A stretch of DNA of 39,115 nucleotides from positions 1-39,115 of the forward strand of contig JAUVJT010000001.1 of NCBI GenBank assembly GCA_030592225.1, in the 5' to 3' direction. The first letter of the stretch is position 1; each line of letters starts with the position of its first letter. A program made the translations under genes and the position numbers. Shown one piece after another: positions 23,919 through 38,985 of this stretch. Below the pieces are notes generated by a model. The model saw nothing but the letters and a program-made list of their open reading frames with translations, had not been told where the DNA came from and did not search any database. This stretch comes from Candidatus Stahliibacteriota bacterium. GTDB lineage: Bacteria; Hydrothermota; Tepidihabitantia; B3-TA06.

Positions 23919-23984
23919 GTAAATCTCCAGGTTGTGGGCGTAGTAGATACCCGCACCTGCCCTGCCCCGGAGCAGACACGGTAA

Positions 23985-24190
23985 GGTAGTACGACGAACA
24001 GGTTTCCTGGCTTACGGATCATCCTGTTTTCCCAACCTTCCCACCTGCTTCGCAGGTAGTGGTTTAGGACTCGCTTATGCGAGTCGAACGCGTCTTTGCT
24101 GCTCGCAAATCCGCGGGAAAAACAGTCCCCGATTACAGTGGCGGGACCGCGGCCGATTCTCACGGCCTTCCCTGACTTCCGCCGTCCAAA
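23985..24190 (-). promoter_or_regulatory. Cobalamin (B12) riboswitch
   Basis: The minus-strand RNA reads GGAAGUCAGGGAAGGCCGUGAGAAUCGGCCGCGGUCCCGCCACUGUAAUCGGGGAC ... GAUGAUCCGUAAGCCAGGAAACCUG. It contains the AGGGAA / GUGAGAAUC / GCGGUCCCGCCACUGU (B12 box) core and the 3' GCCAGGAAACCUG segment. Downstream CUCCGGG can pair with the SD region CCUGGAG. Boundaries are approximate. Confidence 0.8.
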
Positions 24191-24200
24191 TTGTTATACA

Positions 24201-24229
24201 ATAATAAGGGCGAGGGCAGGTGTTGTCAA
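24201..24229 (-). promoter_or_regulatory. sigma70-type promoter driving the riboswitch and receptor
   Basis: On the minus strand, TTGACA (24229-24224), 17 nt spacer, TATTAT (24206-24201). Confidence 0.55.
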
Positions 24230-25639: not shown

Positions 25640-26260
25640 TTACTCCCAGGTTACTTCCCAGTAGCAGCCGTCGCCGCCTTCTTTCCAGCGGCAGGATTTT
25701 TCCTTAACCTTAACTTTAACTCCGCTTAACAGTTCGCATATCTTTTCCAACCACGAGCGGATCACGTAGCAGTGCAGCTTGCCTCCCTCGTAATCGAAAA
25801 GCACAAGCACCGCGTGTTTTGCCTTCTCGTCAACGGAAAGAACCTTGAATTCTCCACAATCCTTGAATCTTGACCACAGATGGGGTATCCTTGCCGCCAC
25901 CCTGGGCATGGGCAGTAAAGCAAGGCGAGTCTTGGGAGCCCCTCCCACGTCTGCATTGGCAAGAGCCGCCCCCAGGTCTTCAAGAACCTTGCCGTTCCCG
26001 CCGCCCAGATGTTCCGCAATGCTCTCGTAAACCTCGGTTAGATACTCCAGGGGATACCACGACCACCCTTCTCCCTGTGAAAGCACCCGCGCCACCGGAG
26101 GGCGCATCTGGGAGATAAACCGCTTATAACCATCTTCCAATTGTTCATCAAGCCATTGATTGATGGTGATAAATGAGTTGCCGCGAACATTTGCCAAGAA
26201 CTCTCCTACTCCTGCTCCATACCTTAATTTTCCGGACCAATCCGTACCAAGTATAAGCAT
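25640..26260 (-). CDS. Hypothetical protein, possibly a V4R / DUF2378-like ligand-binding fold
   Basis: Soluble 206-aa protein. The C-terminal ..EKSCRWKEGGDGCYWEVTWE resembles the C-x-G-x-x-C-x-F/W ending of V4R-type domains. The functional call is weak. Confidence 0.4.
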   Translation of the reverse strand: MLILGTDWSGKLRYGAGVGEFLANVRGNSFITINQWLDEQLEDGYKRFISQMRPPVARVLSQGEGWSWYPLEYLTEVYESIAEHLGGGNGKVLEDLGAALANADVGGAPKTRLALLPMPRVAARIPHLWSRFKDCGEFKVLSVDEKAKHAVLVLFDYEGGKLHCYVIRSWLEKICELLSGVKVKVKEKSCRWKEGGDGCYWEVTWE

Positions 26261-26395
26261 AGCAACATCCTGCGTATTGTCAAGTCCGTAAACTGCAATA
26301 ACCCGGTTTTAGTTTTCTGAATGTCATCGCTCTTGCGAGCGGCTTGCTGCATTACTACCCCTTTACCCGGGAGAATCTTCGGGTATAATCCCCCT

Positions 26396-26761
26396 ATGAG
26401 TTTACCGGAACGCCGAAGAGCGCTGCCGCGCTTGAGTCTGTTATCCAGACCCGTCATCATGTCCCTGGTTGTGCTTGCCGGGCTTATCTTCAGCCTTTAC
26501 CTCTTGCGCAAACAGCAGGCGGCTCTCGATGCAACGGACACGCTCCAGGTAAGCATGCAAGGACTCAAGCTGAACGGTAAAAAGATTTCTCTGCAGCAAG
26601 TGGAGAGGAAATACTCAACTGGCGCGGCGGCGCGGCGGCTGCACGTGGTTTTTGATTCCAATATGCCGTGGGGCCAAACCTGGGGCATCCGCGACACCCT
26701 GATGGCGCTGGCAAAAAACCAGGAGAACCTGACCATAACAGGGCTTGACGAGATAAGGTAG
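26396..26761 (+). CDS. Single-pass membrane protein of unknown function (weak ExbD/TolR-like C-terminal resemblance)
   Basis: MSLPERRRALPRLSLLSRPVIMSLVVLAGLIFSLYLL is a basic N-terminus plus one TM helix. I prefer the ATG at 26396 because TATAAT (26384-26389) ends 6 nt upstream, giving leaderless geometry. The track start at 26321 has no RBS. Confidence 0.5.
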   Translation: MSLPERRRALPRLSLLSRPVIMSLVVLAGLIFSLYLLRKQQAALDATDTLQVSMQGLKLNGKKISLQQVERKYSTGAAARRLHVVFDSNMPWGQTWGIRDTLMALAKNQENLTITGLDEIR

Positions 26762-27226: not shown

Positions 27227-28477
27227 GTGGAAAAACTAGGCATCTTGATATTCTTGCCGGTGTTTCTGTGGGCGCTTGAAACGGTAAACCTACTCAAGGA
27301 TCACAGTTTCGAGAAAGACAGCGAGGTGTGGGTTACTTCAGCTGGTAGTAAGTGGGCAGGTATAGGAGAGGATTCAGCAATCGTAAATAGACATGATTCC
27401 CAAAGTTCATATGATGGATCGTTTTCCGCTTCCGGAGATACGAGAATAACCCCAGCTTGGGTTGGAATGGGAGGATTCGATTCTGCAATGGTCGTTCAGA
27501 GTTTTGCGAATAAGAAGATAGAGGATTTGGATAGTCTGATTTGGAGTCAGAAAGTGGTGTGGAAAAATGATAGTCGTGCGCTTACAGGATTATTCGTGAT
27601 TGGTCTTTTTCTGGATGCTTCTTCTGAAAATTGGTTCCAGTGGGGATATTCATTTGAAAGCCCTGATTTTGATTTTGGCATCATAGATCGATGGCAGAGG
27701 GTGTCTTCCGATATGCCTGATGATACGTTGTGGAAGGAATACGCTCGTGACCTTCAAAAAGATCTGGCTGCTAGTCACGATTTTCAGATCCCCGTCGATT
27801 CCTTTTTGTTGCTTAATTGGGGATTCTGGGGATCTGCCACTTTCTGGTATGGCCAGAAGGTTTACTGGGATGATATACGCTTGATGGGTTATGCGGATTA
27901 CGACGTAGGGGTGAAGGAAATACTTTCCGGTGACTCGCTGGAGGCTGGCACGCCTTACCAGCCTGTGGCACGTATTAAGAACTTCGGTAGTGAGAACGCG
28001 GACAGCTTTTTGGTCATTGCCGAGATTAAGGACGGAGCATCTCTCATCTACGTAGACACCCTGCCGTGGTCTCTTGACTCCGACACCGAGGATACCGTCA
28101 CCTTCGCCGACTTCGACCCGCCCTTCACCGGGCCGTACAACCTGACTGTTAGAACCTTTGCCGAACCCGACGAGTGCGACGAAGACGACGAACTATCAAA
28201 GGAAATCGGGCACTCGTCTGTATCTGAAGTCACTCTACCCGACGGCCTCTCGCTTGAGGTGCGCTCCATTGCGTCACCCTTACAGGTCTCCTACTCCCTG
28301 CCCTACGGCGAATCCGGCACTCTGACCCTCTATGATGCCACGGGCCGCCGCGTGGAGCGGATGGAGGTCAGTCATTCCGGTAACACGGAGTTTGTCGATT
28401 TAGCATCAGGCACGTACTTCATCAAACTTGAGGCTGACGGTATATCCGTTGTAGAGAAAGCGGTTGTACTGCGGTAA
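27227..28477 (+). CDS. Secreted T9SS cargo protein: CBM4_9-like jelly-roll + CARDB-like domain + T9SS type A C-terminal sorting domain
   Basis: Signal peptide MEKLGILIFLPVFLWA. NLLKDHSFEKDSEVW...VYWDDIRL brackets a CBM4/9-like module. YDVGVKEI..PVARIKNFGSENADSF is CARDB-like. The C-terminal ..TLTLYDATGRRVERMEV..LASGTYFIKLEADGISVVEKAVVLR is a textbook Por/T9SS CTD. Confidence 0.85.
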   Translation: MEKLGILIFLPVFLWALETVNLLKDHSFEKDSEVWVTSAGSKWAGIGEDSAIVNRHDSQSSYDGSFSASGDTRITPAWVGMGGFDSAMVVQSFANKKIEDLDSLIWSQKVVWKNDSRALTGLFVIGLFLDASSENWFQWGYSFESPDFDFGIIDRWQRVSSDMPDDTLWKEYARDLQKDLAASHDFQIPVDSFLLLNWGFWGSATFWYGQKVYWDDIRLMGYADYDVGVKEILSGDSLEAGTPYQPVARIKNFGSENADSFLVIAEIKDGASLIYVDTLPWSLDSDTEDTVTFADFDPPFTGPYNLTVRTFAEPDECDEDDELSKEIGHSSVSEVTLPDGLSLEVRSIASPLQVSYSLPYGESGTLTLYDATGRRVERMEVSHSGNTEFVDLASGTYFIKLEADGISVVEKAVVLR

Positions 28478-28525
28478 TTCCCCCTCCCCCTACCCCCTCC
28501 CACCAGGGGAGGGGATGGTAAATAG

Positions 28526-28645
28526 ATGATCGTCACTTGCCCGGGCAGCGTGGAGTTTGGCTCTGCCCTGGCATCAGGTATCTATTTCGTGAGGTTGGAG
28601 ACTCCCCGTCTCTCGATCACAAGGAAAGCGGTGGTAGTGCGATAG
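28526..28645 (+). pseudogene. Orphan fragment of a T9SS C-terminal sorting domain (39 codons)
   Basis: Translates to MIVTCPGSVEFGSALASGIYFVRLETPRLSITRKAVVVR*, i.e. only the last two strands of a T9SS CTD. An in-frame TAG lies immediately upstream (28523-28525) and no domain body is present. Confidence 0.5.
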
Positions 28646-28796: not shown

Positions 28797-28824
28797 TTGA
28801 CAATACCCGTCCCACTCCTATAAT
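28797..28824 (+). promoter_or_regulatory. Consensus sigma70 promoter of the LolA-like/LVIVD operon
   Basis: TTGACA (28797-28802), 16 nt spacer, TATAAT (28819-28824). A second TATAAT lies at 28829-28834. Confidence 0.6.
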
Positions 28825-28923
28825 TCTCTATAATCGTCGTTTAGTTGGGTTATTACTTTAGCAAACTCCGTACGGGAGGATAGTGCTCCGTACCGAAGAA
28901 CAGTTATCCGTTTAGGAGGATAA

Positions 28924-29691
28924 ATGAGAGTAAGATTACCAAAAGGGGTGTGGGTTGTGGGATTATTTTTTGCAATAGCCGTCCCCGCAATGGCGGCAAG
29001 CGAGTATCCTGACGAATTGGGCTTCCTGGCCGACATCCCCACCCCCAAGTACCTTTCTGCAACCGCAACCCTTGCGTCTTTCGACTCCACAGGCAAAATG
29101 CTGGTTGAGCTGCCGGTTCAGTTTTACTGGGACGGAAAATCTCAAAAATACGCGATGGATATCCGGGGACCTGCCGGTGGGGCGAACATGTTCATGCTCG
29201 GAGTGGCCGATACCGTCTGGATGTATAACTTTATGCACGGCGTAATGCTCACCGCTTTCCGTAATCAAAGCTTCAGTTGGGCAACTAAACTGCCCTTTAC
29301 GGCTGAACATTTTCTGGCGCTGTTCAGCATTTTCCCCGATGGCTTCATCCGTATAGACTCCTTCCACATAGAAGATTCCCTGATCACAATCAAAAGCGAC
29401 AGAACTCTTTACTCTTTCGACCGCGAGAGCAAACAGCTGCAGAGTATACGGATTGGCAATACCGAAATGACATTCCGCGACTTTACAAAAACCAAAAAAA
29501 GGCTCTGGCCCAGGAAAATGATACTCAACCAGCCTCTCTTTACCCAGGGTACGGGAAGCGCCCGGATAAACATAGTTTCATTAAGCTTCAAACGTCAGCG
29601 GAAGGATAATTTGTTCGACGTCGAGCTTCCCCCCAATATGAAACGCGCATTCGATCTGCGCAACGTACCCCAGCCGCCCGACTCCGAATAA
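28924..29691 (+). CDS. Exported protein, possibly LolA/LolB-like (DUF4292-type) fold
   Basis: RBS AGGAGG. Signal peptide MRVRLPKGVWVVGLFFAIAVPAMA|A. The all-beta-looking body (..VELPVQFYWDGKSQKYAMDIRGPAG..SLITIKSDRTLYSFDRESKQLQSIRIGN..) is reminiscent of lipoprotein-carrier folds. The functional call is weak. Confidence 0.5.
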   Translation: MRVRLPKGVWVVGLFFAIAVPAMAASEYPDELGFLADIPTPKYLSATATLASFDSTGKMLVELPVQFYWDGKSQKYAMDIRGPAGGANMFMLGVADTVWMYNFMHGVMLTAFRNQSFSWATKLPFTAEHFLALFSIFPDGFIRIDSFHIEDSLITIKSDRTLYSFDRESKQLQSIRIGNTEMTFRDFTKTKKRLWPRKMILNQPLFTQGTGSARINIVSLSFKRQRKDNLFDVELPPNMKRAFDLRNVPQPPDSE

Positions 29692-29711
29692 CTCAGAGCT
29701 GGAACGTCGCA

Positions 29712-31490
29712 ATGGCTTTCTTATTTCTGCTACTGCTTCAATCAAGCTTTGCACCCTGCTCGTCACTCTTGCTCGGCGGCGACTACCGGGCCGGGGCAGC
29801 CGATGACTCACTGCTCTACGTCGCAGACGGCAGGGGCATAAGCGCATTTGAGCAAAGGGCATTCAAACGCCGCGGCGACATTCTGCTGTCGGGCAAAACC
29901 TCTCATGCCGCCCTGTATGGTTCAAGCATCTTCGTAGGTGGAACCCGGGGACTGGCAAGGTTCGATGTCGGCATCCTGTCGCAGCCCGGGCACGTATATC
30001 AGCAGAACACCGAGGTGGAATGGCTGCACCGGGAGCCTGTCACTGCCCTGGAGGTATCCGGGAACAGGCTGTGGTTTGTAGACGCTTCCGGCCGGGTGTA
30101 CGGCATGAACCTGAGAGAAGGCGAAGACGCCTCTCCTTTAGAATTCGCCAGGCTTCCCGTTCCCGCGGTAAGAATCGTGCAGGCTGAGGCGCTCCTCTAC
30201 CTTGCTGCGGACACCGCAGGGGTTTTCGTGCTGGACCTCGATGCCGGGGAATCGCAGGCCAGGAAGCTGACCGTCGAGGATAATCCTCCGGTTGTGGATA
30301 TCCTGGTAGCAGGCGATAAGCTGTACCTGGCGTGCGCCGAGGAAGGATTATGGGCAACTCAGCCCAAACGCAACTCGCTTAAGGTTATCTCGCGCGTTGA
30401 TGCGGCCGGCGAGGTGATGAGCCTGGAGCTTTTCGGCGACAGAATCGCCGCAGCCTCGGGAAGCAAAGATTTCAGTCTCTTTTCAACAGATAGCCCGGAG
30501 GGCCTCGCCCAAATACAGGTGGAGCGCCTGCCCGGAACCGGGCTTGAACTCATAAAGGCTGGAACGAATTGTTTCGTGCTCACGGAAACAGGCATAGGGC
30601 GCATGGATATCTCCACCGCTCCCCTGGCAGGGCACGGGGTGTTCTTCAGGGGGAACGGTTCTGGCCACGATATCCTGACCCGCGGTGAAATCGCCGTTCT
30701 CGCGGCAGGCAAAGCCGGCGTGCAAATCATAGATTTGCAGGATACCCTTAGCTTGCTCGGCACCTACTCTGATGCAGCAGACTGCTGGAAGGCCTATCTT
30801 TTCGGGTCCCAGGTTTATGCCATGACTAAGGCCAACATAATGCAGGTTTCGGAGATAAAAAATCCCGCCAGGCCCGAGAAACGCACCTTTCTGAAGTTCT
30901 CCTCGGTGACTTCAGGGGTGGATACCGAGGGCGAAATGCTCCTTGCCGCCGAGCATGAGCAAGGCGTGGGGGTGTGGTGGCGCTGTCCTTGCGGCCCGTT
31001 CAAAGAACAGGGACGCTGGAGTCCCGGCGGCGAGGCGCTCGACGTTAAAATCAGAGAACAACTGGCTTTCGTCTCGACCGATATGGCAGCCCTGCACGTG
31101 ATTGACTGGTCGGACAGCGCCAACCCTGAAGAGCTTACCAGTCTGGCGCTGAACCGGGACTATGAGAGATTGTATCTGGACGAGGATCTTCTCTTCGGCC
31201 TGGATTCCTCAGGGGCGTTGGTATTGATTGACGTATCCCGCCCTACACGACCCAGAGAAGTGGCCGTGCTGGAACTCCCGGGCGCTCCCGCAGCGCTCGC
31301 ACGTCACCAGGACCGCTTGTTTATTGCCGCTCGGGACGAAGGGGTGCACGTAGTTGACATTTCCAAGCCCTCCTCGCCCGAATTGGTAGAGACCATCGAC
31401 GTGGAACCGGCCATGGGGGTGGCTATTTCCGGCAACAGACTGCTGGTCTGCACCCCCTATTCGGTAGAAGAGTATAAAATTCAACCTTAA
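29712..31490 (+). CDS. LVIVD-repeat beta-propeller protein (paralogue 1)
   Basis: About 13-14 repeats of roughly 40 aa with the LVIVD signature, e.g. GVFVLDLDAGE, AGVQIIDLQD, ALHVIDWSDSANPEEL, GALVLIDVSRPTRPREV, EGVHVVDISKPSSPELV. The N-terminus is hydrophobic (probable signal peptide, no basic n-region). Confidence 0.8.
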   Translation: MAFLFLLLLQSSFAPCSSLLLGGDYRAGAADDSLLYVADGRGISAFEQRAFKRRGDILLSGKTSHAALYGSSIFVGGTRGLARFDVGILSQPGHVYQQNTEVEWLHREPVTALEVSGNRLWFVDASGRVYGMNLREGEDASPLEFARLPVPAVRIVQAEALLYLAADTAGVFVLDLDAGESQARKLTVEDNPPVVDILVAGDKLYLACAEEGLWATQPKRNSLKVISRVDAAGEVMSLELFGDRIAAASGSKDFSLFSTDSPEGLAQIQVERLPGTGLELIKAGTNCFVLTETGIGRMDISTAPLAGHGVFFRGNGSGHDILTRGEIAVLAAGKAGVQIIDLQDTLSLLGTYSDAADCWKAYLFGSQVYAMTKANIMQVSEIKNPARPEKRTFLKFSSVTSGVDTEGEMLLAAEHEQGVGVWWRCPCGPFKEQGRWSPGGEALDVKIREQLAFVSTDMAALHVIDWSDSANPEELTSLALNRDYERLYLDEDLLFGLDSSGALVLIDVSRPTRPREVAVLELPGAPAALARHQDRLFIAARDEGVHVVDISKPSSPELVETIDVEPAMGVAISGNRLLVCTPYSVEEYKIQP

Positions 31491-31503
31491 AGGAGAGTGA
31501 AGG

Positions 31504-33267
31504 ATGCTTACAGGATTGCTCCTAACCTTGATGGCGGCGGCGCCGGAGGTGATGTTTGGGGATGCGGGGAATTACTTCGTAGCAGGAGATTTCGCAGATA
31601 TCGTGGAGGTTGATGGGACCATCTACGCGGCAAGCGGTTTTGGGTTGACGACAGTTCCCGCAGACCTCAGCTCGCAGGAGCATTTTCCCACGCCATACTA
31701 CTCGCGGAAGATTGCATCGGCTGACAAACGGTTATACCTCGGTGAAGGCACGAGGATTACCGCATTCAAGGTATCTGGCAAAGCCGTACAGATGCTGGCC
31801 TCTTACCCGGTACAAGGCAGAATAACCGCACTGGCAGCCGGCAAGGATTTCGTGGCCGCGGGTACGGATTCGGCAAAAGTGGAGATATTCTCACAAGACT
31901 CCAGGCTGAAACCGATTGCCGTCATCGATATGCCCGAAACTGTGAAGGATATCGTCTTTTACAAGGGATTCCTCTACGCGGCCTGCGGCAGGGAAGGAGT
32001 TGTTATCATAAGACTGGGAGATGCTCCGGCTAAAGTGGGAGAACTTTCCCTATCCGGCGCCCGGGCTTTGGAGGTTGGTGAAAATACTCTGTTTGTGGCC
32101 ATCGCTTCTACGGAGATTTATGGTTTCTCCCTGGCCGACCCCGCCTCACCTCAAGAGAAGATCAAGTTCTCAAGTTCCTCGCCTGCGGTCTCGCTTGCAT
32201 ATTACGACAAGCATCTGTACGCCGCACAGAGATACCAGGGCTACTCCATCTTCAACCTGCGCGGCGAACGAGTTGAACTGGCCGAGCCGTTCCGCCAGGG
32301 CGACGTGGTGGACATTCTGCCCACCGATGAGGGCGTGTTTCTGGCGCTGCGGGAGGCGGGAGTTGTGCGTCTGGAAGATGAAACCCTCGCCGAGCTAACC
32401 CTCACCGCTCGTCTTGAGCAAAACTCCCCGTCAATTCACACCACCCAAAGCGGTTCGTTCTGGGCGGTGGCTCGCGGCGAGGATGGTGCAAGTATCGTAA
32501 GGCTGTTTGAAGGCGAGACCTTTGTGACCCTGGGCCATGCCGAGCCTCCGCCTTCAAATGCGGCAGGCGTTTTTCTCTCCGGAACCTATCTGTACGTGGC
32601 CGACGTCAAACACGGCGCTTCCATATACAACATGAAAACCTTCCCTGTGGCCGAACGCAGCTTTGACCTGCACCAGCCGGGCGAGCCGCAGCGCATCAAC
32701 CTGACCAATGATTTGATACCCCTTGCCGCAGGTGAATGGGGACTAAGGGTACTGTGGATATGCCCTTGCGGCCCGCTCAAACAGCGCTCAGCCCTGGGAG
32801 GCTTCACCGCTGTAGACGTCGCGGCCCGGGATTCAATCATATACGTGGCCGATCCCGACTCAGGCCTGCGAATCATGGAGGTGAGCGAGGAAGGGGTCAA
32901 ACTCACCCAGCTTTCCGTATACCCAGGGGTAATAAGCCCCCGGGCGCTATTGCGTGACGGAGATGTTCTGTACGTGGCGGACAGCATCGGCGCAATCGCG
33001 GCGCTGGACGTATCCGACCCCGCCAACCCCGAACAGCTTTCCTTCACCTTTATAGACACCCGACCTTACGGACTGGATATTGAGAATTCAACCCTGTACG
33101 TGGCCTGCGGCGAGAGCGGAGTGTTAGAGATAGATGTGAGTGATCCCTCGGCGCCGAAGCCCGGCGAGTTCATCGAAACACCGGGCAAGGCCCTTGCGGT
33201 TGCCGCATCGAAGCGCCATCTGGGTGTGGCCGACTACACATCCTGGATACTCCTGCCTCTGGAGTAA
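31504..33267 (+). CDS. LVIVD-repeat beta-propeller protein (paralogue 2)
   Basis: RBS AAGGAGAG. Repeats such as GVVIIRLGD, SGLRIMEVSEEG, GAIAALDVSDPANPEQL, SGVLEIDVSDPSAPKP. Collinear with paralogue 1, including the CPCGP motif. The N-terminus is hydrophobic. Confidence 0.8.
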   Translation: MLTGLLLTLMAAAPEVMFGDAGNYFVAGDFADIVEVDGTIYAASGFGLTTVPADLSSQEHFPTPYYSRKIASADKRLYLGEGTRITAFKVSGKAVQMLASYPVQGRITALAAGKDFVAAGTDSAKVEIFSQDSRLKPIAVIDMPETVKDIVFYKGFLYAACGREGVVIIRLGDAPAKVGELSLSGARALEVGENTLFVAIASTEIYGFSLADPASPQEKIKFSSSSPAVSLAYYDKHLYAAQRYQGYSIFNLRGERVELAEPFRQGDVVDILPTDEGVFLALREAGVVRLEDETLAELTLTARLEQNSPSIHTTQSGSFWAVARGEDGASIVRLFEGETFVTLGHAEPPPSNAAGVFLSGTYLYVADVKHGASIYNMKTFPVAERSFDLHQPGEPQRINLTNDLIPLAAGEWGLRVLWICPCGPLKQRSALGGFTAVDVAARDSIIYVADPDSGLRIMEVSEEGVKLTQLSVYPGVISPRALLRDGDVLYVADSIGAIAALDVSDPANPEQLSFTFIDTRPYGLDIENSTLYVACGESGVLEIDVSDPSAPKPGEFIETPGKALAVAASKRHLGVADYTSWILLPLE

Positions 33268-33370
33268 TCCAGACCTCTCTCTTGCGGATTAACAGTAAGG
33301 GGTTGATATTTCAAGGCTTACAGAACAAGAGTTGCGGATAGTGCCGTAAGACACGGCAATCCAAATCCGC

Positions 33371-33398
33371 TTGACAAGTTAAATCCGTAGAGTATACT
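33371..33398 (+). promoter_or_regulatory. sigma70-type promoter of the radical SAM pair
   Basis: TTGACA (33371-33376), 16 nt spacer, TATACT (33393-33398). The leader to the ATG at 33551 is about 145 nt. Confidence 0.55.
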
Positions 33399-33550
33399 TT
33401 ATAAAACGTGGGGTATCACCTCGCGGGGTCCAGGATGGTCTTGAACGCGGCAATGCCCCCTTCCCCCGAGTCTGCAAATGAGGGTACGAGAGAGCTAACT
33501 ATAAGAGCAGGGTGAAGATACACAGGTAACGAAGGAGAATAACGAATAAG

Positions 33551-34915
33551 ATGGCTGCCAGATTGAATTCGAACCCCAAGATTCTCTTAACCACCGCCTA
33601 CCGGCATTCGGCAAACGACTACTACGATGCCAGTGGAGTGAACTTCGTACGCAAGCCTCACTTTGCATTGCCCCGCACCGTCTCCACGTCCCTGCGGTTC
33701 CTTAAGCAGAACATCCCCGAGATCGAGATAATGGAGTTTCCCCGCTGGCACGAGTACGTAGCAAAGCTCCGCGAAGGCTGGGATGCGGTAGGATTCACCT
33801 TCTTCCACCACGATCTGGCCGAGATACTCCAGATGGTCGAGGAGGCCAGACGTCAGGGCATCCGCGAGATATGGGCCGGCGGCTACGGCGGTCTCTCTCT
33901 GGAGGCTGAGGAGTTTGCCGACCGCATCTTCTACGGCTACGCGGAGAAGCAGTTCAACGAGGAGATCTTCGGACGCAAGCTGGAGCGCGTCCAGCATCCG
34001 CCGGTGGCTATGACGGTTAACGTGAACCTCCCGCCCACCGTACCCTTCAAGAAGGTGGGGTATCTGTTTACCCAACGCGGCTGTCCATACCGCTGCACAT
34101 TTTGTCAGACCCCAATCCACTCGCCGCGCCCGGCCCGGGTCCCGCTCGAGAGCATCGAGGAGGTGCTGCGCTACTACCGCTCGGTCGGAATCAACGAGGT
34201 GTGGATTCTCGATGAGACTTTCTACACCTTCCCCTCCCACTCCGAGGCGGTCATAGATTTGCTTACCCGCTATAACTTCTACTGGTGGGTGCAGTCGCGC
34301 GCGGATTTGACCCTGAAGCATCTTGACGACTGGGCCGATCGCGGGATGGTGGTGGTTGGGTTCGGGTTGGAAAGCGTTAACAACGAAATCCTGGCCAAGA
34401 TCGGGAAGAGAACCAACCTGGAGGTTATGCGGGAATTCAGACGGCGAACCGCCGAACGTATGGTGTACGCGATGGCCTACTACATGATAGGTTACGAGGA
34501 AGATACTGTTTCCTCGGTTCTGCGCGACTACGTTACCCTGCGCAAGATGGGGTTTGATATGCATCAGCTAACCGTACTCACCCCCTTTCCCAAAACCCCA
34601 CAGTGGTTTGACTTCAGGGAACGCTACGGTATCTTCGAGCCCGACTACCACCGCTACGACGCACGTCACCTTGTGTGGAATCATCCCCAAATCACGCCCT
34701 CCCAGATGCAGATGCTTTTGCGCGTCGGTCTGGCAAACCTCAACGTTCCCATGGATAACTATGGCAAGGCGATCATTCGTCTGATTCAACGCCGCCTGTA
34801 CGACAAAGGCATCCCGCGGTTAATCTGGGAGGAGTTGATAAAACCCCCAATTCATGCTCTCGGTTTCCGCGAACGCAAGCAGGTCTTTATCCCCGCAAAT
34901 GGAGCGAGAGGATAA
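33551..34915 (+). CDS. B12-binding-domain-type (class B-like) radical SAM protein, paralogue 1
   Basis: CX3CX2C cluster motif RGCPYRCTFCQ. N-terminal Rossmann-like module (KILLTTAY...PRTVSTSLRFLKQNIPEIEIMEF...WDAVGFTFF) arranged as in cobalamin-binding rSAM enzymes. No C-terminal SPASM Cys cluster and no signal peptide. Confidence 0.9.
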   Translation: MAARLNSNPKILLTTAYRHSANDYYDASGVNFVRKPHFALPRTVSTSLRFLKQNIPEIEIMEFPRWHEYVAKLREGWDAVGFTFFHHDLAEILQMVEEARRQGIREIWAGGYGGLSLEAEEFADRIFYGYAEKQFNEEIFGRKLERVQHPPVAMTVNVNLPPTVPFKKVGYLFTQRGCPYRCTFCQTPIHSPRPARVPLESIEEVLRYYRSVGINEVWILDETFYTFPSHSEAVIDLLTRYNFYWWVQSRADLTLKHLDDWADRGMVVVGFGLESVNNEILAKIGKRTNLEVMREFRRRTAERMVYAMAYYMIGYEEDTVSSVLRDYVTLRKMGFDMHQLTVLTPFPKTPQWFDFRERYGIFEPDYHRYDARHLVWNHPQITPSQMQMLLRVGLANLNVPMDNYGKAIIRLIQRRLYDKGIPRLIWEELIKPPIHALGFRERKQVFIPANGARG

Positions 34916-34916
34916 G

Positions 34917-36278
34917 ATGCCCAGACCGACCACAAATCCCAAGATACTTCTAACCACCGCATACCGACACTCAAAGAACGATTATTACGACGCGATAGGG
35001 GCGAACTTCGTGCGCACCCCTCGCTTTGCCATCCCCCGTACCGTAGCCTCGGGACTGCGATTCATCAAGCAGAACGTTCCGGATATCGAGATAATGGAGT
35101 ATCCCCTGTGGCACGAGTTCACAGCAAAGCTTGCCGAAGGCTGGGACGTTGTGGGATTTTCGTTCTTCCAGCACGACATCGGAGAGGTGCTGGAGATGGC
35201 TGCGGAGGCGCGGCGTCAGGGGGTCAAGGAAATATGGGCAGGTGGCTATGGTGCACTCGATTCGATTGCCGAGGAGTTTGCCGACCGTGTCTTCTACGGC
35301 TACTCAGAGGAACAGCTCCTTGCTGAGCTTTTTGGCCGCAAGCTGGACAGGCTGCGCCACCCTCCCCTGGTATGGCCTTTAAACATCAATCTCCCACCGG
35401 CAATTCCATACAAGAAACTGGGTATCGTCAACACCCAGCGCGGCTGTCCCTACCGCTGCACATTCTGCCAGACTCCAGTACATGCGCCACACCCTTCACG
35501 TATTCCGCTTGAAAGCATCGAGGAAATAATTCGTTACTACCGATCCGTGGGTATCAATGAGGTATGGATAATCGACGAAACCTTCTACACCTTTCCTTCC
35601 CACTCGAAAGCGGTTATCGACATGTTGGCCAGATACGATATGCACTGGAAACCGATGACGCGCGCCGATTTATGCCTTGAGCATCTCGACAGCTGGGTTG
35701 ACCGGGGCATGGTGATGGTCTCGGTGGGGGTGGAAAGCGTCAACAACGAGATACTGGCCAAGATCGGCAAGAGAACGAACATAGAACTCATGCAGGAGTT
35801 CAGGCGTCGCACCATAGAGAAGAAGGTCTTCGTTCTCGCCTATTACATGTTAGGCTACGAGGAGAATACATATGAGTCTATACTTCGGGATATCGAGGTC
35901 ATACGCAAGAACCTCTGGTTCGATCTCTTCCAGCTCACCGTGATGACACCTTACCCCCGAACCCCGCTATGGTACGATTTGGAGTCGCGCTACGGCATCT
36001 TTGAACGTGACTATCATAAGTTCGACGCACGCCACCTGGTTTGGAATCACCCCAACATCAGTCCTCGCCAGATGGATAAGCTTCTGCGGATGGCCATGGC
36101 CCACCTTAATATCCCGATGCGTAACTACATTAAAGGACTTATAGGGTTAGGCCAGCGTCGCATACACCAGAAGGGTTTTGGCTTTCTGTGGGATGACGTG
36201 GCCCGGCCGTTTCTGCATTCGCTGAGATATAACGAACGCAAACAGGTGTCCTTGCCCCGGCTGGAGAAAAAACCCTGA
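34917..36278 (+). CDS. B12-binding-domain-type (class B-like) radical SAM protein, paralogue 2
   Basis: Identical RGCPYRCTFCQ motif. Collinear with paralogue 1 without indels, with well over half the residues identical by eye. The ATG at 34917 lies 1 nt after the upstream TAA with GAGAGGA upstream; the track start at 34854 overlaps gene 1. Confidence 0.9.
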   Translation: MPRPTTNPKILLTTAYRHSKNDYYDAIGANFVRTPRFAIPRTVASGLRFIKQNVPDIEIMEYPLWHEFTAKLAEGWDVVGFSFFQHDIGEVLEMAAEARRQGVKEIWAGGYGALDSIAEEFADRVFYGYSEEQLLAELFGRKLDRLRHPPLVWPLNINLPPAIPYKKLGIVNTQRGCPYRCTFCQTPVHAPHPSRIPLESIEEIIRYYRSVGINEVWIIDETFYTFPSHSKAVIDMLARYDMHWKPMTRADLCLEHLDSWVDRGMVMVSVGVESVNNEILAKIGKRTNIELMQEFRRRTIEKKVFVLAYYMLGYEENTYESILRDIEVIRKNLWFDLFQLTVMTPYPRTPLWYDLESRYGIFERDYHKFDARHLVWNHPNISPRQMDKLLRMAMAHLNIPMRNYIKGLIGLGQRRIHQKGFGFLWDDVARPFLHSLRYNERKQVSLPRLEKKP

Positions 36279-36387
36279 GACGAGGAAAACCCCGCCGGCG
36301 CCGAGATAGTCCCTCCCGCTTAGTCGACTCCACTACCAGACTACCCTTAGGTAACTTACGTACCAGTGATATGAGGACGAAGGAAAC

Positions 36388-37554
36388 CTACTGTGGTGAC
36401 TCCTGTGGAGCAAGCAGCCGCTGGATTGTCCGGCGGGCCGACGAGTGGGCAGGATTAAACCGCAGGGCGGTCTCCAACACCATAATCGCCGCTGAAATCT
36501 GACCTCTTTGAGCGTAAAGATATGACAGGTTATCGTAGGAATCCATAAACGTGGGATCGGCGCGAATCGCCTGCTTGAATGAGAGAACCGCCTTGTCGAA
36601 ATACCCCTCTGCATTATAGACAAACCCCAGGTTGTTGAGGATCATTGCATACATTCTGCTGGATTCCGGAAGCATCCACTCCGCCATACGAGCGCCTGTC
36701 TTCAGTATTTCTTCAGCTTCCTTCAACCGTCCCTGACGATAAAAAAGACTCCCCAGCTTGACGTATGCACTTATATTCTCCTGATTCTCACGCTGCGCCC
36801 GGCGGTAATATTCTTCCGCGCGCGCGTAATCCTTTTGGCTCTCAGCAATACCGCCGAGAAGAGAAGAAGTTTCGCTCCGCTCGTATCCCAGCTCGTAAGC
36901 CTTGGTCATCATTTCCGCCGCCTGTACCTGATTTCTAGTCATCCGATAGTAGATACCCAGTTGGTAATAGCAGTATCCCGGTTTGAAATTATACTCAAGC
37001 GCTTCCCTAAAAGCCCGCTCACCTATCTCGTAGTGCCTGGACTTCATCGCCGTGAGGGCGTAGTCAACGTGAGTCGCCTTCAGGGGAAACTCCTCGGGAC
37101 GCTGCCTCATGCGTGAAAATATCTCGAAAGCCGTCTGATCCTGACCCAGAAGAGCATGGCAGCGCGCGCGCTGGTAAGTCACCCAGGGAACGTCAAGCCC
37201 GGCACGCTCCGCCTTCTGGTAAAAAGCAAGTGCCTGATTGTAATCCCTGCGCGTGTAGTATACCTCGGCTTGCAGAAAATCGGCAAGAACGGCAAATTCC
37301 TGCTCCTGCCGGGGAGAAGTCTTCATGGGCTGAAAGAACCCCGCTATCGGAAGGGCAAGAACGACAAACAGACCTGAAAGAACAAGAAGCCATCTGGATT
37401 TGAAGAATACGGCCAGAACCAGAACAACGGCCAGAGGCGGTGCAATAAACCACAAGGCAGACATGGCAAGAAGTAACGGGGGCAGAAGAGCAATCAAAAC
37501 AGCGCCCACCACTACGGCAATAACGTGGGCGGTCGAGACTCCGACGCTCCTCAT
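36388..37554 (-). CDS. Membrane-anchored TPR-repeat protein
   Basis: Three N-terminal hydrophobic helices, then about 7 TPR-like units (..YNQALAFYQKAERAG.., ..YARAEEYYRRAQRE.., ..GRLKEAEEILKTGARM.., FDKAVLSFKQAIRADP..). The start overlaps the upstream gene stop (ATGA). Confidence 0.85.
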   Translation of the reverse strand: MRSVGVSTAHVIAVVVGAVLIALLPPLLLAMSALWFIAPPLAVVLVLAVFFKSRWLLVLSGLFVVLALPIAGFFQPMKTSPRQEQEFAVLADFLQAEVYYTRRDYNQALAFYQKAERAGLDVPWVTYQRARCHALLGQDQTAFEIFSRMRQRPEEFPLKATHVDYALTAMKSRHYEIGERAFREALEYNFKPGYCYYQLGIYYRMTRNQVQAAEMMTKAYELGYERSETSSLLGGIAESQKDYARAEEYYRRAQRENQENISAYVKLGSLFYRQGRLKEAEEILKTGARMAEWMLPESSRMYAMILNNLGFVYNAEGYFDKAVLSFKQAIRADPTFMDSYDNLSYLYAQRGQISAAIMVLETALRFNPAHSSARRTIQRLLAPQESPQ

Positions 37555-38912
37555 TTCTCAACTTCCTTCGGGGATTGCTTGGCCCGCCGCAGGATGATCT
37601 CGCGTCCCAGAAACACCACTGCAAGCGAAGCAAAAATCACCAGCGCCAGTTGCCACGGGAAGATAAGCGCTGCTCGCTCGGCACCGAACAGCGAATATCC
37701 GCAAAACACCAGCAGGAAAACCGCAAGCGTGTTCAAAAGCACAGATGGTACGAAGTATCGTTGGAGTCGCAGAGGAGGCATTGTCAGAACAAGCGCCACG
37801 ACAAGAAAACAAACGTAGACAAACAAGGTTGGGTACCCCAGGCACCACGCAAAGGCTGTGGCCAGAACGAACATCCCGCCTGCAGCCCTGCGGAATGTCT
37901 TTCTGTCCGCTTCACTGCGCTCCGAATCGTAGCCGCGGCTCAGGAACAGGTGTACTGCAGCTGAGGCGGCTCCCAGAATAAACAGGGCAATCAGAGCCAG
38001 GTAGTCAAACGGGTTGCGCGGAACGCCTACCAGGAGATCGCGCAGGCCGAGCCATGCAAACAGGAAGCCCGCGCCTGCAGCAAACGCCGATATTATCATT
38101 ATAACGGGATCAAGAGAACGAATTAAAAGGCGCGTTTTCTCCTTGCTGTACAAAAACAGCCCGAGCCACAGCATTGGGGTAAACGGGAAAAGAAGAACCA
38201 ATGCGTACTTACGGGTGGAGGAGTTGATGAGTCCACCCAAAAAGTAAAGCGACTGGGTTGACGAAGGGTCGCCCGGCAAAAGACCCATGATCTGCTGCGT
38301 ACCGCCGGTGACTACAGCGGCTACTGCCATAATAATCGGGGTAAGCAGAATCGAGATTATCTTCCGCCGGGTAGTACGGGCTCGAAGACCACTGTATATC
38401 GCAACCAACAAAACAGCTAGATATATCTCTACCAGCATCCCGGGAGAAGTGCCGTAAGGAACCACTGCCTCCCCCCACGAGGAGAAAATAAGCCAGGGCT
38501 GCAAGATAGCCTTGATTCCGTTGATGACCATTGCGGGATCGCCGGGGTAGGCAAGATTAAAACCGCCGGAACGAAACAGGGGATCGACCAACGGCGGAAT
38601 CATGATGATAAACGAATAAACTAAAAGCACCCGAATTGTCTTGCGGAAATCTATCCCGGCGACGAGACGCATCAATAGCGCTATTGCGAGATACATCACG
38701 AAGTAGAAGAGGGAATAATGCAGAAACAGCATCTCGATGGTCAGGATAGTGGTTACAGTATTCCCTGTCCCTGATGTCTCCATCACGCCTTCCGTTATAT
38801 TGCGCACGACCGTGTAGCCATAAGCTATCAGGATAAACGTCCCGAGAGACATCGTCGATTTCTCCACCGGTTTGATGAAGGTGTTGTCTAACCAGTTAAA
38901 AAACTTTTTCAT
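37551..38912 (-). CDS. Polytopic integral membrane protein of unknown function (about 12 TM helices)
   Basis: RBS GGAAGGAGAG upstream of the ATG at 38912. Hydrophobic helices are spread across the 453 aa. The C-terminal third has a weak UbiA-like flavour (..TMPPLRLQRYFVPSVLLN..), but I could not recognise intact Asp-rich motifs. Confidence 0.7.
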   Translation of the reverse strand: MKKFFNWLDNTFIKPVEKSTMSLGTFILIAYGYTVVRNITEGVMETSGTGNTVTTILTIEMLFLHYSLFYFVMYLAIALLMRLVAGIDFRKTIRVLLVYSFIIMIPPLVDPLFRSGGFNLAYPGDPAMVINGIKAILQPWLIFSSWGEAVVPYGTSPGMLVEIYLAVLLVAIYSGLRARTTRRKIISILLTPIIMAVAAVVTGGTQQIMGLLPGDPSSTQSLYFLGGLINSSTRKYALVLLFPFTPMLWLGLFLYSKEKTRLLIRSLDPVIMIISAFAAGAGFLFAWLGLRDLLVGVPRNPFDYLALIALFILGAASAAVHLFLSRGYDSERSEADRKTFRRAAGGMFVLATAFAWCLGYPTLFVYVCFLVVALVLTMPPLRLQRYFVPSVLLNTLAVFLLVFCGYSLFGAERAALIFPWQLALVIFASLAVVFLGREIILRRAKQSPKEVEK

Positions 38913-38957
38913 TAACTCTCTCCTTCCAGTTAGATTGAATGATACTAATCAGAAAGA

Positions 38958-38985
38958 ATTATAGGAAGGCACACTCGACTGTCAA
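38958..38985 (-). promoter_or_regulatory. Consensus sigma70 promoter of the membrane-protein/TPR operon
   Basis: On the minus strand, TTGACA (38985-38980), 16 nt spacer, TATAAT (38963-38958). Confidence 0.55.

Follow-up and report, generated by a model that had tools for sequence, protein, structure and literature searches.

A conserved gene cluster of uncultured bacteria with LVIVD propellers, radical SAM enzymes and a UbiA-derived membrane protein

The locus studied here raises the question of whether seven neighbouring genes for envelope-type proteins and radical SAM (rSAM) enzymes belong to one conserved system, and what that system might do. It lies in a 39,115-nucleotide stretch of DNA, referred to below as the window. 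A sequence-only reading had proposed seven genes in three units, each with a near-consensus promoter. An ORF check recovered 7/7 genes (g1–g7), including the paralogue pairs g2/g3 and g4/g5, and Pfam supported the family names LVIVD (g2, g3), Radical_SAM (g4, g5) and TPR (g6). The three promoters were also found, with hexamers exactly at 28797 (+), 33371 (+) and 38985 (−). The features are as follows:

28797..28824, + strand: promoter of unit (i), sigma-70-type, TTGACA-16-TATAAT, 12/12 consensus match
28924..29691, + strand: g1, predicted secreted LolA/LolB-fold protein, 255 aa (AF2 model and Foldseek)
29712..31490, + strand: g2, LVIVD beta-propeller paralogue A, 592 aa (PF08309, 47.6 bits)
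31504..33267, + strand: g3, LVIVD beta-propeller paralogue B, 587 aa (PF08309, 37.3 bits)
33371..33398, + strand: promoter-like site of unit (ii), TTGACA-16-TATACT, 11/12 match
33551..34915, + strand: g4, class-B-like radical SAM enzyme, 454 aa (PF04055, 69 bits)
34917..36278, + strand: g5, tandem paralogue of g4, 453 aa (Pfam Radical_SAM, 68 bits)
36388..37554, − strand: g6, three N-terminal TM helices and TPR repeats, 388 aa (Pfam TPR matches)
37551..38912, − strand: g7, polytopic membrane protein, ~12 TM, 453 aa (UbiA homology of the C-terminal part)
38958..38985, − strand: promoter of unit (iii), TTGACA-16-TATAAT, 12/12 match

The longest ORF for g5 begins at 34854; alignment with g4 favours the ATG at 34917. 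Promoter-like sites number 16 in the region, compared with 8.3 ± 2.8 in shuffles.

The same gene set recurs on about ten independent contigs of WOR-3, Stahlbacteria and related uncultured bacteria (loci L001/L006, L002, L003+L032, L004, L016, L024, L079/L080 and L081/L082). Gene order and orientation are shuffled among lineages, where orthologues are only 30–60% identical. The arrangements comprise that of the window and L004/L081, those of L016, L024 and L079, and a split type (L003 and L032) in which an rSAM gene adjoins both halves. Recurrence on this many independent contigs with rearranged order indicates that the region is a genuine conserved gene cluster of an uncultured bacterial lineage. 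No paper was found that connects LVIVD with radical SAM, or UbiA and TPR with radical SAM, so that the combination proved to be both conserved and undescribed, as had been suggested. A putative function is inferred below. In a distant lineage (L086) a triad of fused pseudo-UbiA-TPR protein, LolA-like lipoprotein and LVIVD propeller occurs without any rSAM, and therefore defines the core. Two small conserved neighbours, neither with a Pfam match, may be accessory parts of the cluster:

25640–26260, − strand: c9, 206 aa, recurring in L001, L024, L025 and L079
26321–26761, + strand: c13, 146 aa with one TM helix, recurring in L001, L004 and L079

Together with Fic and a B12-riboswitch TonB receptor gene, c9 and c13 are lineage-synteny genes that travel with the cluster.

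The membrane protein g7, previously described as a 12-TM protein of unknown family, could be placed in the UbiA superfamily. No Pfam or NCBIfam match was found for g7, but residues 246–438 aligned with genuine UbiA proteins in hhalign (97%, E 4e-11), and a purpose-built UbiA-domain HMM matched with E 7e-18. The g7 model, whose N-terminal half is of low confidence (pLDDT about 50–70), gave a weak Foldseek match to AfUbiA (4tq4). g7 consists of a conserved N-terminal domain of ~240 aa (conserved residues E17, R37, E41, E45, H65, D110, Y122, E162 and Y173), for which no relative of known structure was found, followed by a truncated UbiA fold. In the alignment this fold lacks both Asp-rich motifs, NDxxDxxxD and KDxKDxxGD, and g7 is thus a degenerate UbiA-superfamily member that has lost its catalytic motifs. 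Among its 549 distant relatives, many combine the N-domain with a PF01040 UbiA domain (89–103 bits) and TPR repeats, and NDxxDxxxD is kept in at least 85 of 146 wider-family representatives. The description of g6 as a membrane-anchored TPR protein was confirmed by its Pfam TPR matches and three N-terminal TM helices. Residues 3–380 of g6 are colinear with residues 442–839 of a fused 847-aa relative, P0151 (E 2e-22), and the two genes overlap at the stop of g7 and the start of g6 (ATGA). Judged from these alignments, g7 and g6 are the split form of single-chain N-domain-UbiA-TPR proteins.

Comparison was made with UbiA-superfamily intramembrane prenyltransferases (PF01040; AfUbiA 4tq4, UBIAD1, DGGGP synthase, and DPPR synthase/membrane PRTase 8j8j). 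Homology to their fold covers the C-terminal half of g7 and continues through the three g6 TM helices, and their conserved YxxPPxRLKR-type segment is present in g7 as PPLRLQR. Members of the wider family score above the Pfam threshold and have both Asp-rich motifs intact. The WOR-3 clade, in contrast, lacks NDxxDxxxD and the second Asp motif, has a deletion of ~12 residues in the substrate loop, is split into two genes at the position of the second Asp motif, and carries the additional N-terminal (~240 aa) and TPR domains. With the catalytic motifs of g7 lost, no chemistry can be read directly from the UbiA link.

The label LolA-like that had been given to g1 holds at the level of fold, not of sequence. 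Searches of Pfam (LolA and LolB families included) and NCBIfam gave no match. The AF2 model, which is of low confidence (pLDDT only 64), matched the LolA superfamily, LolB and LolA3 in Foldseek with E 2e-8 to 1e-6 and TM 0.5–0.6; these matches were the LolA-superfamily protein 3buu (E 2e-8), P. gingivalis LolB and LolA3, and E. coli LolB. The signal peptide is SPI-type, ends AMA↓A, and has no lipobox Cys. g1 is probably a soluble protein of the periplasm. Among 5.8 billion proteins it has only 6 clusters of homologues. Orthologues were found in L001–L004, L016, L024 and L079, and the L086 lipoprotein encoded beside the fused UbiA-TPR gene is a distant homologue (hhalign 94%, E 1.6e-7). Flexirubin loci of Bacteroidota hold pathway-dedicated LolA2/LolB2 genes (PMC11885536). 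g1 resembles these proteins and P. gingivalis LolA3 and LolB in its LolA/LolB fold and in having its gene within a specialised cluster, not with LolCDE; its SPI signal peptide is shared with LolA. Unlike them, g1 has no detectable sequence similarity to Pfam LolA/LolB, its partners are propellers and a pseudo-UbiA protein, with no RND or MMPL exporter, and there are no nearby pigment genes of the polyketide or fatty-acid type.

Both propellers exceed the Pfam LVIVD cut-off of 20.2 bits. They are ~23% identical to each other (E 1e-22), and orthologues of each occur in every cluster copy. About 24 columns are conserved across the two paralogue families, among them the invariant motif W-x-C-[PS]-C-G-P, which holds the sole conserved cysteines:

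30978..30998, + strand: invariant W-R-C-P-C-G-P motif in g2 (column conservation across paralogue families)
32755..32775, + strand: invariant W-I-C-P-C-G-P motif in g3 (same basis)

The short hydrophobic N-terminus of g2 is probably a signal peptide. Export of the propellers is suggested by such N-termini, which have no charged n-region.

The enzymes g4 and g5 are 65% identical over their full length and form one group in the NJ tree, which fits a duplication within the lineage. As had been proposed, they are class-B-like in architecture: in g4 a Rossmann-like N-terminal domain precedes the rSAM core, with a single CxxxCxxC. The absence of SPASM was confirmed, since C178, C182 and C185 are the only cysteines conserved across 22 diverse family members. 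The claim that there is no precursor peptide also stood; no conserved small ORF was found, and in orthologous loci the rSAM gene lies only 10–70 bp behind the second propeller gene. The earlier label B12-type is putative: no match to the Pfam B12-binding domain was obtained in g4 or g5, and Radical_SAM was the sole precomputed Pfam domain in 120 listed homologues. No curated NCBIfam cut-off was reached (36–70 bits vs 360–650, for HpnJ, BchE, PhpK, AprD4, HpnR and TIGR04072), placing the enzymes in no characterised clade. The best PDB match for g4 was AprD4 (6fd2), and the family profile had no PDB match to Tes/GDGT-MAS at E<=1.

The class B (B12-binding-domain) rSAMs compared (AprD4 (6fd2), TokK (7kdx), CysS (9n1b), HpnJ/HpnR, BchE and PhpK, and the lipid-modifying Grs, Gmm and Ted) share the domain order, the CxxxCxxC and the lack of SPASM with the g4/g5 family and are its best profile matches. 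However, these matches cover essentially the rSAM core only, and the g4/g5 family is compact (~450 aa), its genes frequently stand in tandem arrays, and none of its members has been characterised. Tes/GDGT-MAS and Mss are radical SAM enzymes common to archaea and anaerobic FCB-type bacteria, with typically free-standing genes (PMC8941075; PMC13159169); the g4/g5 family has no auxiliary-cluster cysteines. By these criteria g4 and g5 belong to a large uncharacterised class-B-like family.

How tightly are the rSAMs tied to the core? The family is broad, with 208 genome matches ranging over Acidobacteria, Zixibacteria, Methanothrix, Thermoplasmata and Hadarchaea (several archaeal orders). Outside this lineage, in Acidobacteria, Zixibacteria and the archaeal orders, none of the cluster neighbours and no conserved neighbourhood was found. 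Cluster neighbours are missing at 68 of 79 rSAM loci, including every archaeal and acidobacterial member, and also at L005, a sister sequence 62% identical to g4. Of two observations earlier held to speak against a joint system, occurrence of the family elsewhere without these neighbours was thus made, while membership in a known clade was not. rSAM genes are nevertheless carried by most g7-homologue contigs long enough to judge, as seen directly in the window, L004, L006, L016, L024, L032 and L081 and deduced for four more from contigs of identical length. The number of adjacent rSAMs per cluster is 0, 1, 2, at least 3, or 5, whereas propellers are always two, and the idea of 2+2 cognate pairs had to be given up.

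It is possible, though we consider it doubtful, that the rSAMs stand outside the system. The unit would then be the pseudo-UbiA/TPR protein, LolA-like protein and propellers, serving envelope biogenesis, anchoring or structure, and the rSAM arrays would adjoin it through synteny kept in the lineage, their own substrate being widespread and unrelated. Such a module would be loosely analogous to Tol/Bam-type assemblies: BamB/BamD and TolB/CpoB pair a propeller with a TPR protein in the envelope, and here too the genes for a putatively periplasmic beta-propeller and for a TPR protein share a locus. No sequence relationship to BamB/BamD or TolB/CpoB was found, and, unlike in those assemblies, the TPR domain is carried by a polytopic protein of the inner membrane, and the propellers are of the LVIVD type and bear a CxC motif. 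The core has no rSAM next to it in L079 and L086, and in L093 and L094 the TM/TPR pair stands by itself, so that the coupling may be loose and could even be no more than inherited synteny. The free-standing occurrence of the family in most lineages, the separate promoters of the propeller and rSAM units in the window, and the company of c9, c13, Fic and the TonB receptor gene fit this reading. Against it, rSAM adjacency outlasts several independent rearrangements and is kept by each half of the split cluster, and the adjacent rSAMs come from at least four subclades, including a very distant one in L016. In L001–L004 the g4 orthologues lie directly behind the propellers, and in L002, L003 and L004 the gap of 10–68 bp is too short for a separate promoter, making the genes operonic there. 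Finally, a separate link joins rSAMs with UbiA: three other lineages (L009, L012 and L016) have operons in which an rSAM pair of another subclade is joined by a canonical UbiA prenyltransferase (PF01040, 99 bits), with a polyprenyl-phosphate sugar transferase next in L016.

A weaker alternative, which we regard as unlikely, is that the rSAMs are maturases that alter both propellers in the cytoplasm, at or near W-x-C-[PS]-C-G-P, for instance by forming a thioether or cross-link, by C-methylation or by oxidising Cys, with g7/g6 and g1 aiding export or assembly. The motif is present in 20/20 cluster propellers and nowhere else in the ~1.3 Mb of fetched loci. It is missing from the LVIVD protein of L086, where a core cluster lacks rSAM genes altogether and which is the only such case seen; the shared operon in L002–L004 also fits, and proteins are known substrates of some class-B-type rSAMs (the NCBIfam MCR glutamine C-methyltransferase family is listed, with a weak match). 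However, in L079 the propellers retain the motif although no rSAM adjoins them, the constant two propellers do not follow the 0–5 rSAMs, and archaeal and acidobacterial rSAM loci hold neither an LVIVD gene nor the CxC motif within ±10 kb. The enzymes also have no SPASM/twitch cysteines and no recognisable peptide-recognition domain, and a folded 590-aa propeller would be an unusual substrate.

A periplasmic thiol-redox or metal-handling system, in which the CxC propellers serve as soft-metal binders or as carriers of electrons or disulfides, with the membrane protein as partner, is very improbable: CPC-type motifs are redox-active or metal-binding sites in other proteins, and CxC is the sole conserved cysteine feature of two otherwise divergent propellers, but the cluster has no thioredoxin-fold, cytochrome or metal-transporter genes, and the LolA fold, UbiA-derived partner and rSAMs would be left unexplained.

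We tentatively prefer, at somewhat less than an even chance, a core envelope module for a hydrophobic, probably polyprenyl-type cargo, to which cargo-modifying rSAMs are a lineage-specific add-on. In catalytically active UbiA proteins the groove accommodates polyprenyl chains. The two UbiA links give indirect support to the earlier proposal that the rSAMs modify lipids, and isoprenoid lipids are substrates of many class B rSAMs, such as Grs, Gmm and the GDGT methylases and desaturase (PMC11214058, bioRxiv 10.1101/2025.10.20.683597); no lipid-biosynthetic genes were found within the window. The core would consist of one inner-membrane protein encoded in two parts, g7 and g6 (N-domain, UbiA fold without catalytic Asp, and a probably periplasmic TPR domain), periplasmic g1, and the two exported propellers with their CxC motif. 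A hydrophobic molecule embedded in the membrane, most plausibly a polyprenyl or isoprenoid lipid, would sit in the UbiA-derived groove of g7/g6, and the TPR domain would dock periplasmic partners. g1 would shield the hydrophobic moiety across the periplasm, and at the outer envelope it would be taken over or used by the propellers. The cytoplasmic g4 and g5, accessory in this scheme, would act on unactivated carbons of the cargo, or of a precursor of it, by methylation or C-C chemistry before hand-over, and different rSAM paralogues may carry out different or successive modifications.

All seven genes that the sequence-only reading had placed in the cluster at 28797-38985 were found by ORF calling, and its three promoter-like sites were recovered, matching the consensus at 12 of 12 positions at 28797 (+) and 38985 (−) and at 11 of 12 at 33371 (+). 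The genes are as follows.

Genes of the cluster (coordinates, strand, product, length)
28924-29691, +, g1, predicted LolA-fold protein, 255 aa
29712-31490, +, g2, LVIVD propeller, 592 aa
31504-33267, +, g3, LVIVD propeller, 587 aa
33551-34915, +, g4, radical SAM enzyme (rSAM), 454 aa
34917-36278, +, g5, rSAM, 453 aa
36388-37554, −, g6, TPR protein, 388 aa
37551-38912, −, g7, polytopic membrane protein (TM12), 453 aa

The longest ORF for g5 begins at 34854 and shares 62 nt with the 3' end of g4 (34854-34916); its start was set at the ATG at 34917, because homology with g4 begins there. This ATG lies two bases past the g4 stop codon, so that g4 and g5 are probably tightly coupled. The two rSAMs are 65% identical, while the propellers are distant paralogues (~23% identical, E 1e-22). 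Product names in the public records are all "hypothetical", "radical SAM" or "TPR", and the nearest homologues are annotated as candidate division WOR-3. Pfam identified TPR repeats in g6. Neither g1 nor g7 had a Pfam or NCBIfam match at E ≤ 0.01, including PF01040 for g7, and fold and profile methods were needed for both.

Conservation of the cluster was examined in 78 loci obtained by scanning genome collections with an alignment of the rSAM family; ORFs were called throughout and compared with the window proteins. Homologues of g1, both propellers, g6 and g7 lie beside rSAM genes in L001/L006, L002, L003 (together with L032), L004, L016 and L024, and look-ups of g7 homologues added L079/L080 and L081/L082. 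In the window, L004 and L081 the order is LolA-like, propeller, propeller, rSAM array, then the convergent TPR and TM12 genes. In L016, L024 and L079, TM12-TPR is instead convergent with propeller-propeller-LolA-like, and in one genome the cluster is split into L003 (LolA-like, two propellers, rSAM) and L032 (TPR, TM12, rSAM). Orthologues share only about 30-60% identity. The genes have thus stayed together through rearrangement, which is better explained by a functional link than by recent shared ancestry, and the g1-g7 set is a conserved cluster. Its accessory (non-rSAM) proteins are extremely restricted in distribution, with 6 homologue clusters for g1 and 23 for g7 among 5.8 billion proteins. 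Literature searches on LVIVD with radical SAM, and on UbiA with radical SAM and TPR, found no paper, in agreement with the earlier suggestion that the combination is undescribed.

Several other genes accompany the cluster. Two small proteins lacking a family assignment travel with it or with rSAM genes: c9 (206 aa, 25640-26260, −; also in L001, L024, L025 and L079), which has a C-terminal CxW…GGxxCxWE motif, and c13 (146 aa, 26321-26761, +; also in L001, L004 and L079), which has one TM helix. In the window (24404-25573, +) and in L079 (18675-19850) a Fic-domain protein separates the cluster from a TonB receptor, and L024 has an rSAM at the matching position. Just upstream of the cluster (27227-28477, +) a protein of 416 aa carries a T9SS C-terminal sorting domain; it is missing from the orthologous clusters, and the intergenic short peptide that follows (28478-28600, +; …GIYFVRLETPRLSITRKAVVVR) resembles the end of a T9SS sorting domain and is probably a gene remnant. 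A duplicated small-gene set stands downstream of a single rSAM in L002 (6250-10546) and L003 (11620-15958). Judged by reading the sequences only, it includes an ECF-type sigma-factor-like protein (c39), Spy/CpxP-like periplasmic proteins (c40, c41) and a putative anti-sigma factor whose N-terminus is zinc-finger-like (c43); together these genes may form a regulatory unit for envelope stress adjoining the cluster. No known anti-phage defence system was recognised, PADLOC giving only a weak generic rSAM match to the candidate model PDC-M51A (30-35 bits).

The earlier assignment of g1 as LolA-like was upheld at the level of fold but not of sequence family, there being no Pfam or NCBIfam LolA or LolB match at E ≤ 0.01. 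The AF2 model (pLDDT 64) consists of helices and an antiparallel sheet, and nearly all of its top 38 Foldseek matches in the PDB were LolA, LolB or other LolA-superfamily proteins (E 2e-8 to 8e-5, TM up to 0.61). This modelled structure places g1, at the fold level only, in the LolA/LolB superfamily, which is defined by an unclosed antiparallel beta-barrel with a helical plug. The signal peptide of g1 ends AMA|A and is not followed by a lipobox cysteine, so that g1 resembles a soluble periplasmic carrier.

The propellers g2 and g3 matched the PF08309 LVIVD repeats with 47.6 and 37.3 bits (cut-off 20.2), and both are probably exported, given their short hydrophobic N-termini. No homologue of the g3 propeller was found in the PDB. 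Only some 24 columns are conserved among 15 propellers from the two paralogue families; they include a W-x-C-[PS]-C-G-P motif, which contains the sole conserved cysteines. In a six-frame search of all fetched loci this motif occurred 20 times, once per cluster propeller and nowhere else.

The sequence-only reading had left g7 as a 12-TM protein of unknown family, and this no longer holds, since profile-profile comparison, a dedicated HMM and the PF01040 domains of its relatives all identify it as UbiA-derived. The AF2 model of g7 (pLDDT 71, higher for the C-terminal half) had only weak Foldseek matches (E 0.2), to the UbiA homologues 4tq4, UBIAD1 and a membrane PRTase. When the g7 family was compared by hhalign with the UbiA proteins of cluster c15, which are encoded beside rSAM pairs, residues 246-438 of g7 were matched (97.2%, E 4.3e-11). 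A profile search run exhaustively over 1.84 billion representatives recovered 549 relatives of g7, many of 500-950 aa, in which Pfam resolves a g7-like N-domain, a UbiA domain (PF01040 89-103 bits; cut-off 34.2) and a C-terminal TPR region. An HMM of the UbiA domain built from these relatives matched g7 with E 7.2e-18. In P0151, a fused UbiA-TPR protein of 847 aa, residues 5-427 are matched by the g7 family profile and residues 442-839 are colinear with the whole length of g6. The stop codon of g7 and the start codon of g6 overlap (ATGA). The colinearity and this overlap indicate that g7 and g6 correspond to two halves of a single-chain protein, either ancestral or alternative, and we infer that the last UbiA helices are represented by the three TM helices at the N-terminus of g6. 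By fold homology, g7 and g6 together belong to the UbiA superfamily.

The Asp-rich motifs of UbiA enzymes are lost in this pair. In g7, LSRGYDSERSEA stands in place of the first, NDxxDxxxD; this replacement varies within the WOR-3 clade, and the neighbouring loop is shorter by ~12 residues (alignment A6). The second (KDxKDxxGD / DxxxD) is absent, as g7 stops (…FLGREI…) at the point where KDLKD occurs in its relatives, nor is the motif provided by the N-terminus of g6. Degeneration extends to the nearest fused relatives, P0151 and P0152, while at least 85 of 146 members of the wider family keep NDxxDxxxD. Because these motifs are lost, g7/g6 is not a canonical Mg2+/diphosphate prenyltransferase. 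Conserved family-wide are E17, R37, E41, E45, H65, D110, Y122, G158, E162 and Y173 of the N-domain and a PPLRLxR segment; the N-domain profile found no relative of known structure in the PDB. The pattern of lost and kept residues suggests that g7/g6 may use the UbiA fold as a lipid-binding platform, or may have its active site in the N-domain. Neither the N-domain–UbiA–TPR family (549 representatives) nor its split WOR-3 form, which lacks the motifs, has been described before. Members of the wider family (P0150-P0295; loci L083 and L086-L092) are often encoded beside secreted proteins with T9SS-type C-terminal domains, and their neighbours include a Kelch propeller with FlgD_ig, an arylsulfotransferase with FlgD_ig, and S8 proteases.

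Loci without an adjacent rSAM gene define the core of the system. Propeller-fold neighbours accompany the fused UbiA-TPR gene in L083, L086 and L087, and none do in L090, L091 and L092. In L086, P0151 is adjacent to an LVIVD propeller of 570 aa without the CxC motif and to a 256-aa lipoprotein homologous to g1 (hhalign 94%, E 1.6e-7), with no rSAM within 10 kb. L079 has the whole WOR-3-type core, its propellers bearing the motif, and no adjacent rSAM. L093 and L094 contain the TM12/TPR pair by itself; an rSAM identity for the gene upstream of TM12 in L093 was rejected. The contents of these loci identify the conserved core as UbiA-like/TPR, LolA-like and LVIVD proteins.

The rSAMs g4 and g5 matched PF04055 with 69 and 68 bits (cut-off 29.5), and their single CxxxCxxC motif (C178, C182, C185) is invariant in 22 diverse members of the family. 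The reported absence of SPASM domains was borne out, with no SPASM Pfam match and no conserved cysteine outside the SAM cluster. Lacking C-terminal auxiliary Fe-S cysteine motifs, the enzymes were rejected as SPASM/twitch rSAMs (sactisynthases, anSME, Gms). A conserved N-terminal domain of ~165 aa resembles the Rossmann-like domain of class-B enzymes in its strand pattern (…PRILLTT…, …EILEYP…, …WDVVGFSFF…). Neither protein matched a Pfam B12-binding domain, Radical_SAM being the sole precomputed Pfam domain among 120 listed homologues, and the N-terminal region has only weak similarity to TIGR04013 (33-41 bits) and 4q37 (E 0.05). The window also has, at 21918-24209 (−) and ~5 kb from the cluster, a TonB-dependent receptor gene (Plug domain) preceded by a cobalamin riboswitch (72 bits). 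The same pair directly follows an rSAM in L024 (11514-13768) and stands beside the rSAM-less cluster of L079 (20061-21344); it could supply B12 to the rSAMs, or could reflect lineage synteny only.

The rSAMs fall in no curated clade, their best NCBIfam scores being 36-70 bits against cut-offs of 360-650. Scores below trusted cut-offs excluded HpnJ, HpnR, BchE, PhpK, AprD4, the TIGR04072 lipid rSAM and the MCR Gln methyltransferase. The closest solved structures, from a search of the PDB with the family profile at E ≤ 1, were AprD4, the uncharacterised 9ccb, TokK and CysS, with HydE and others also matched; Tes/GDGT-MAS was absent from these matches and was rejected. As judged against these curated profiles and solved structures, the family has no characterised member. 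It comprises 532 proteins at E ≤ 1e-5 among the scored candidates, and 208 genome stretches were matched; it ranges over bacteria (WOR-3, Zixibacteria, Stahlbacteria, Coatesbacteria, Aminicenantes and many Terriglobia/Acidobacteriaceae MAGs) and archaea (Methanothrix, Thermoplasmata, Methanomassiliicoccales, Hadarchaea). Tandem duplication is frequent. In Methanothrix (L057, L062, L073 and L046, Methanothrix / Methanosarcinales) the family rSAM is followed by a very divergent paralogue of ~480 aa on its own deep branch, and the two may form a conserved heteromeric pair in archaea.

The rSAMs linked to the cluster belong to at least four subclades of an NJ tree. Their number beside the other genes is 0 (L079), 1 (L002, L003, L024), 2 (window, L016), at least 3 (L001/L006) or 5 (L004, L081), which refutes the idea that two propellers and two rSAMs form cognate pairs. 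In L004 (9989-17472) and L081 (9794-17109) five tandem paralogues stand between the propellers and TPR/TM12; these are of different subclades, which suggests functional diversification. In L002, L003 and L004 the first rSAM begins 10-68 bp past the second propeller and is therefore operonic with it there. Operons of the form rSAM–rSAM–UbiA were found in three other lineages (L009 9992-14447, L012 3-4304, L016 6827-11076). Their UbiA, the small polytopic c15 protein, is a canonical prenyltransferase with a PF01040 match of 99 bits and both Asp-rich motifs (NDxFDxExD, KDxRDIxGD), and reached no curated subfamily cut-off. The L009 operon goes on with a third rSAM, and that of L016 has a Bac_transf polyprenyl-phosphate sugar transferase after UbiA.

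Taken as a whole, we lean, tentatively and at somewhat less than even odds, towards a cargo-handling core whose cargo is modified by rSAMs. At the inner membrane the core would handle a hydrophobic cargo, probably of polyprenyl type, the LolA-fold protein would carry this cargo across the periplasm to the propellers, and the rSAMs would modify it in the WOR-3 lineage. There are precedents for both parts: LolA2/LolB2 are dedicated to flexirubin loci (PMC11885536), and B12-type rSAMs are prominent in isoprenoid-lipid tailoring (PMC11214058; bioRxiv 10.1101/2025.10.20.683597). Type II PKS or FAS-like biosynthetic genes of the flexirubin/aryl-polyene type were found neither in the window nor in the orthologous loci. 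The sequence-only reading had proposed that the rSAMs modify either lipids or the two propellers, and the cluster comparison and fold searches partly support and refine that interpretation.

It is rather unlikely, though a serious rival, that the rSAMs simply sit in synteny with a propeller/TPR/LolA envelope module without being part of it. The rSAM-less core of L079 would fit such an arrangement. In L005, labelled Myxococcota, a sister rSAM 62% identical to g4 has no cluster genes nearby. Outside WOR-3-type loci, ORF clustering of the 78 loci and a Pfam scan of 146 flanking proteins found no recurrent rSAM neighbour, the best recurrent type being generic SAM methyltransferases (4 of 146). Set against this are the operonic rSAM-propeller spacing and the rSAM–rSAM–UbiA operons.

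Modification of the propellers by the rSAMs at the CxC motif is unlikely. The invariance of the motif in the cluster propellers speaks for it, and its presence in L079, beside no rSAM, speaks against it. The earlier observation that no precursor peptide is encoded also stood, as the intergenic search found no conserved small ORF and the rSAM abuts the propeller gene in L002-L004. No RRE or PqqD domain was matched in Pfam, and a RiPP or peptide-maturation system, having neither an adjacent short precursor nor an RRE domain, was rejected. A thiol or metal system, to which only the conserved CxC would point, is very improbable.

A broader proposal, and a long shot in our estimation, is that the ~450-aa rSAMs are a new class that modifies lipid tails, by methylation or C-C coupling of polyprenyl, isoprenoid or alkyl chains, in WOR-3, Zixibacteria, peat/soil Acidobacteria, Methanothrix, Thermoplasmata and Hadarchaea, and that the WOR-3 module of pseudo-UbiA/TPR, LolA-fold and CxC-propeller proteins is a hitherto unknown dedicated route, which would draw the modified lipid out of the inner membrane and hand it to the outer envelope. 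If true, it nominates candidates for the missing enzymes of acidobacterial branched membrane-spanning lipids; no Mss was found in Acidobacteria (Sci Adv 2022; PMC13159169).

Every component of the cluster comes from a known superfamily and no new mechanism is demonstrated; its kin are LolA-assisted envelope pathways, UbiA-fold membrane proteins and class-B-like rSAMs. The host organisms are uncultured, and any practical pay-off hinges on heterologous expression. If the cargo-handling model holds, the rSAM family would gain its first contextual clues, in the form of UbiA-fold partners. As its members number in the hundreds, among Acidobacteria of peat and soil and among archaea that include methanogens, this would bear on the search for the enzymes behind unusual membrane lipids that serve as palaeoclimate biomarkers. 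The model would also widen the idea that LolA-like proteins ferry hydrophobic cargo other than lipoproteins, and it would mean that a UbiA fold has been turned into a non-catalytic, split TPR membrane scaffold with a dedicated LolA-fold carrier and CxC propellers.
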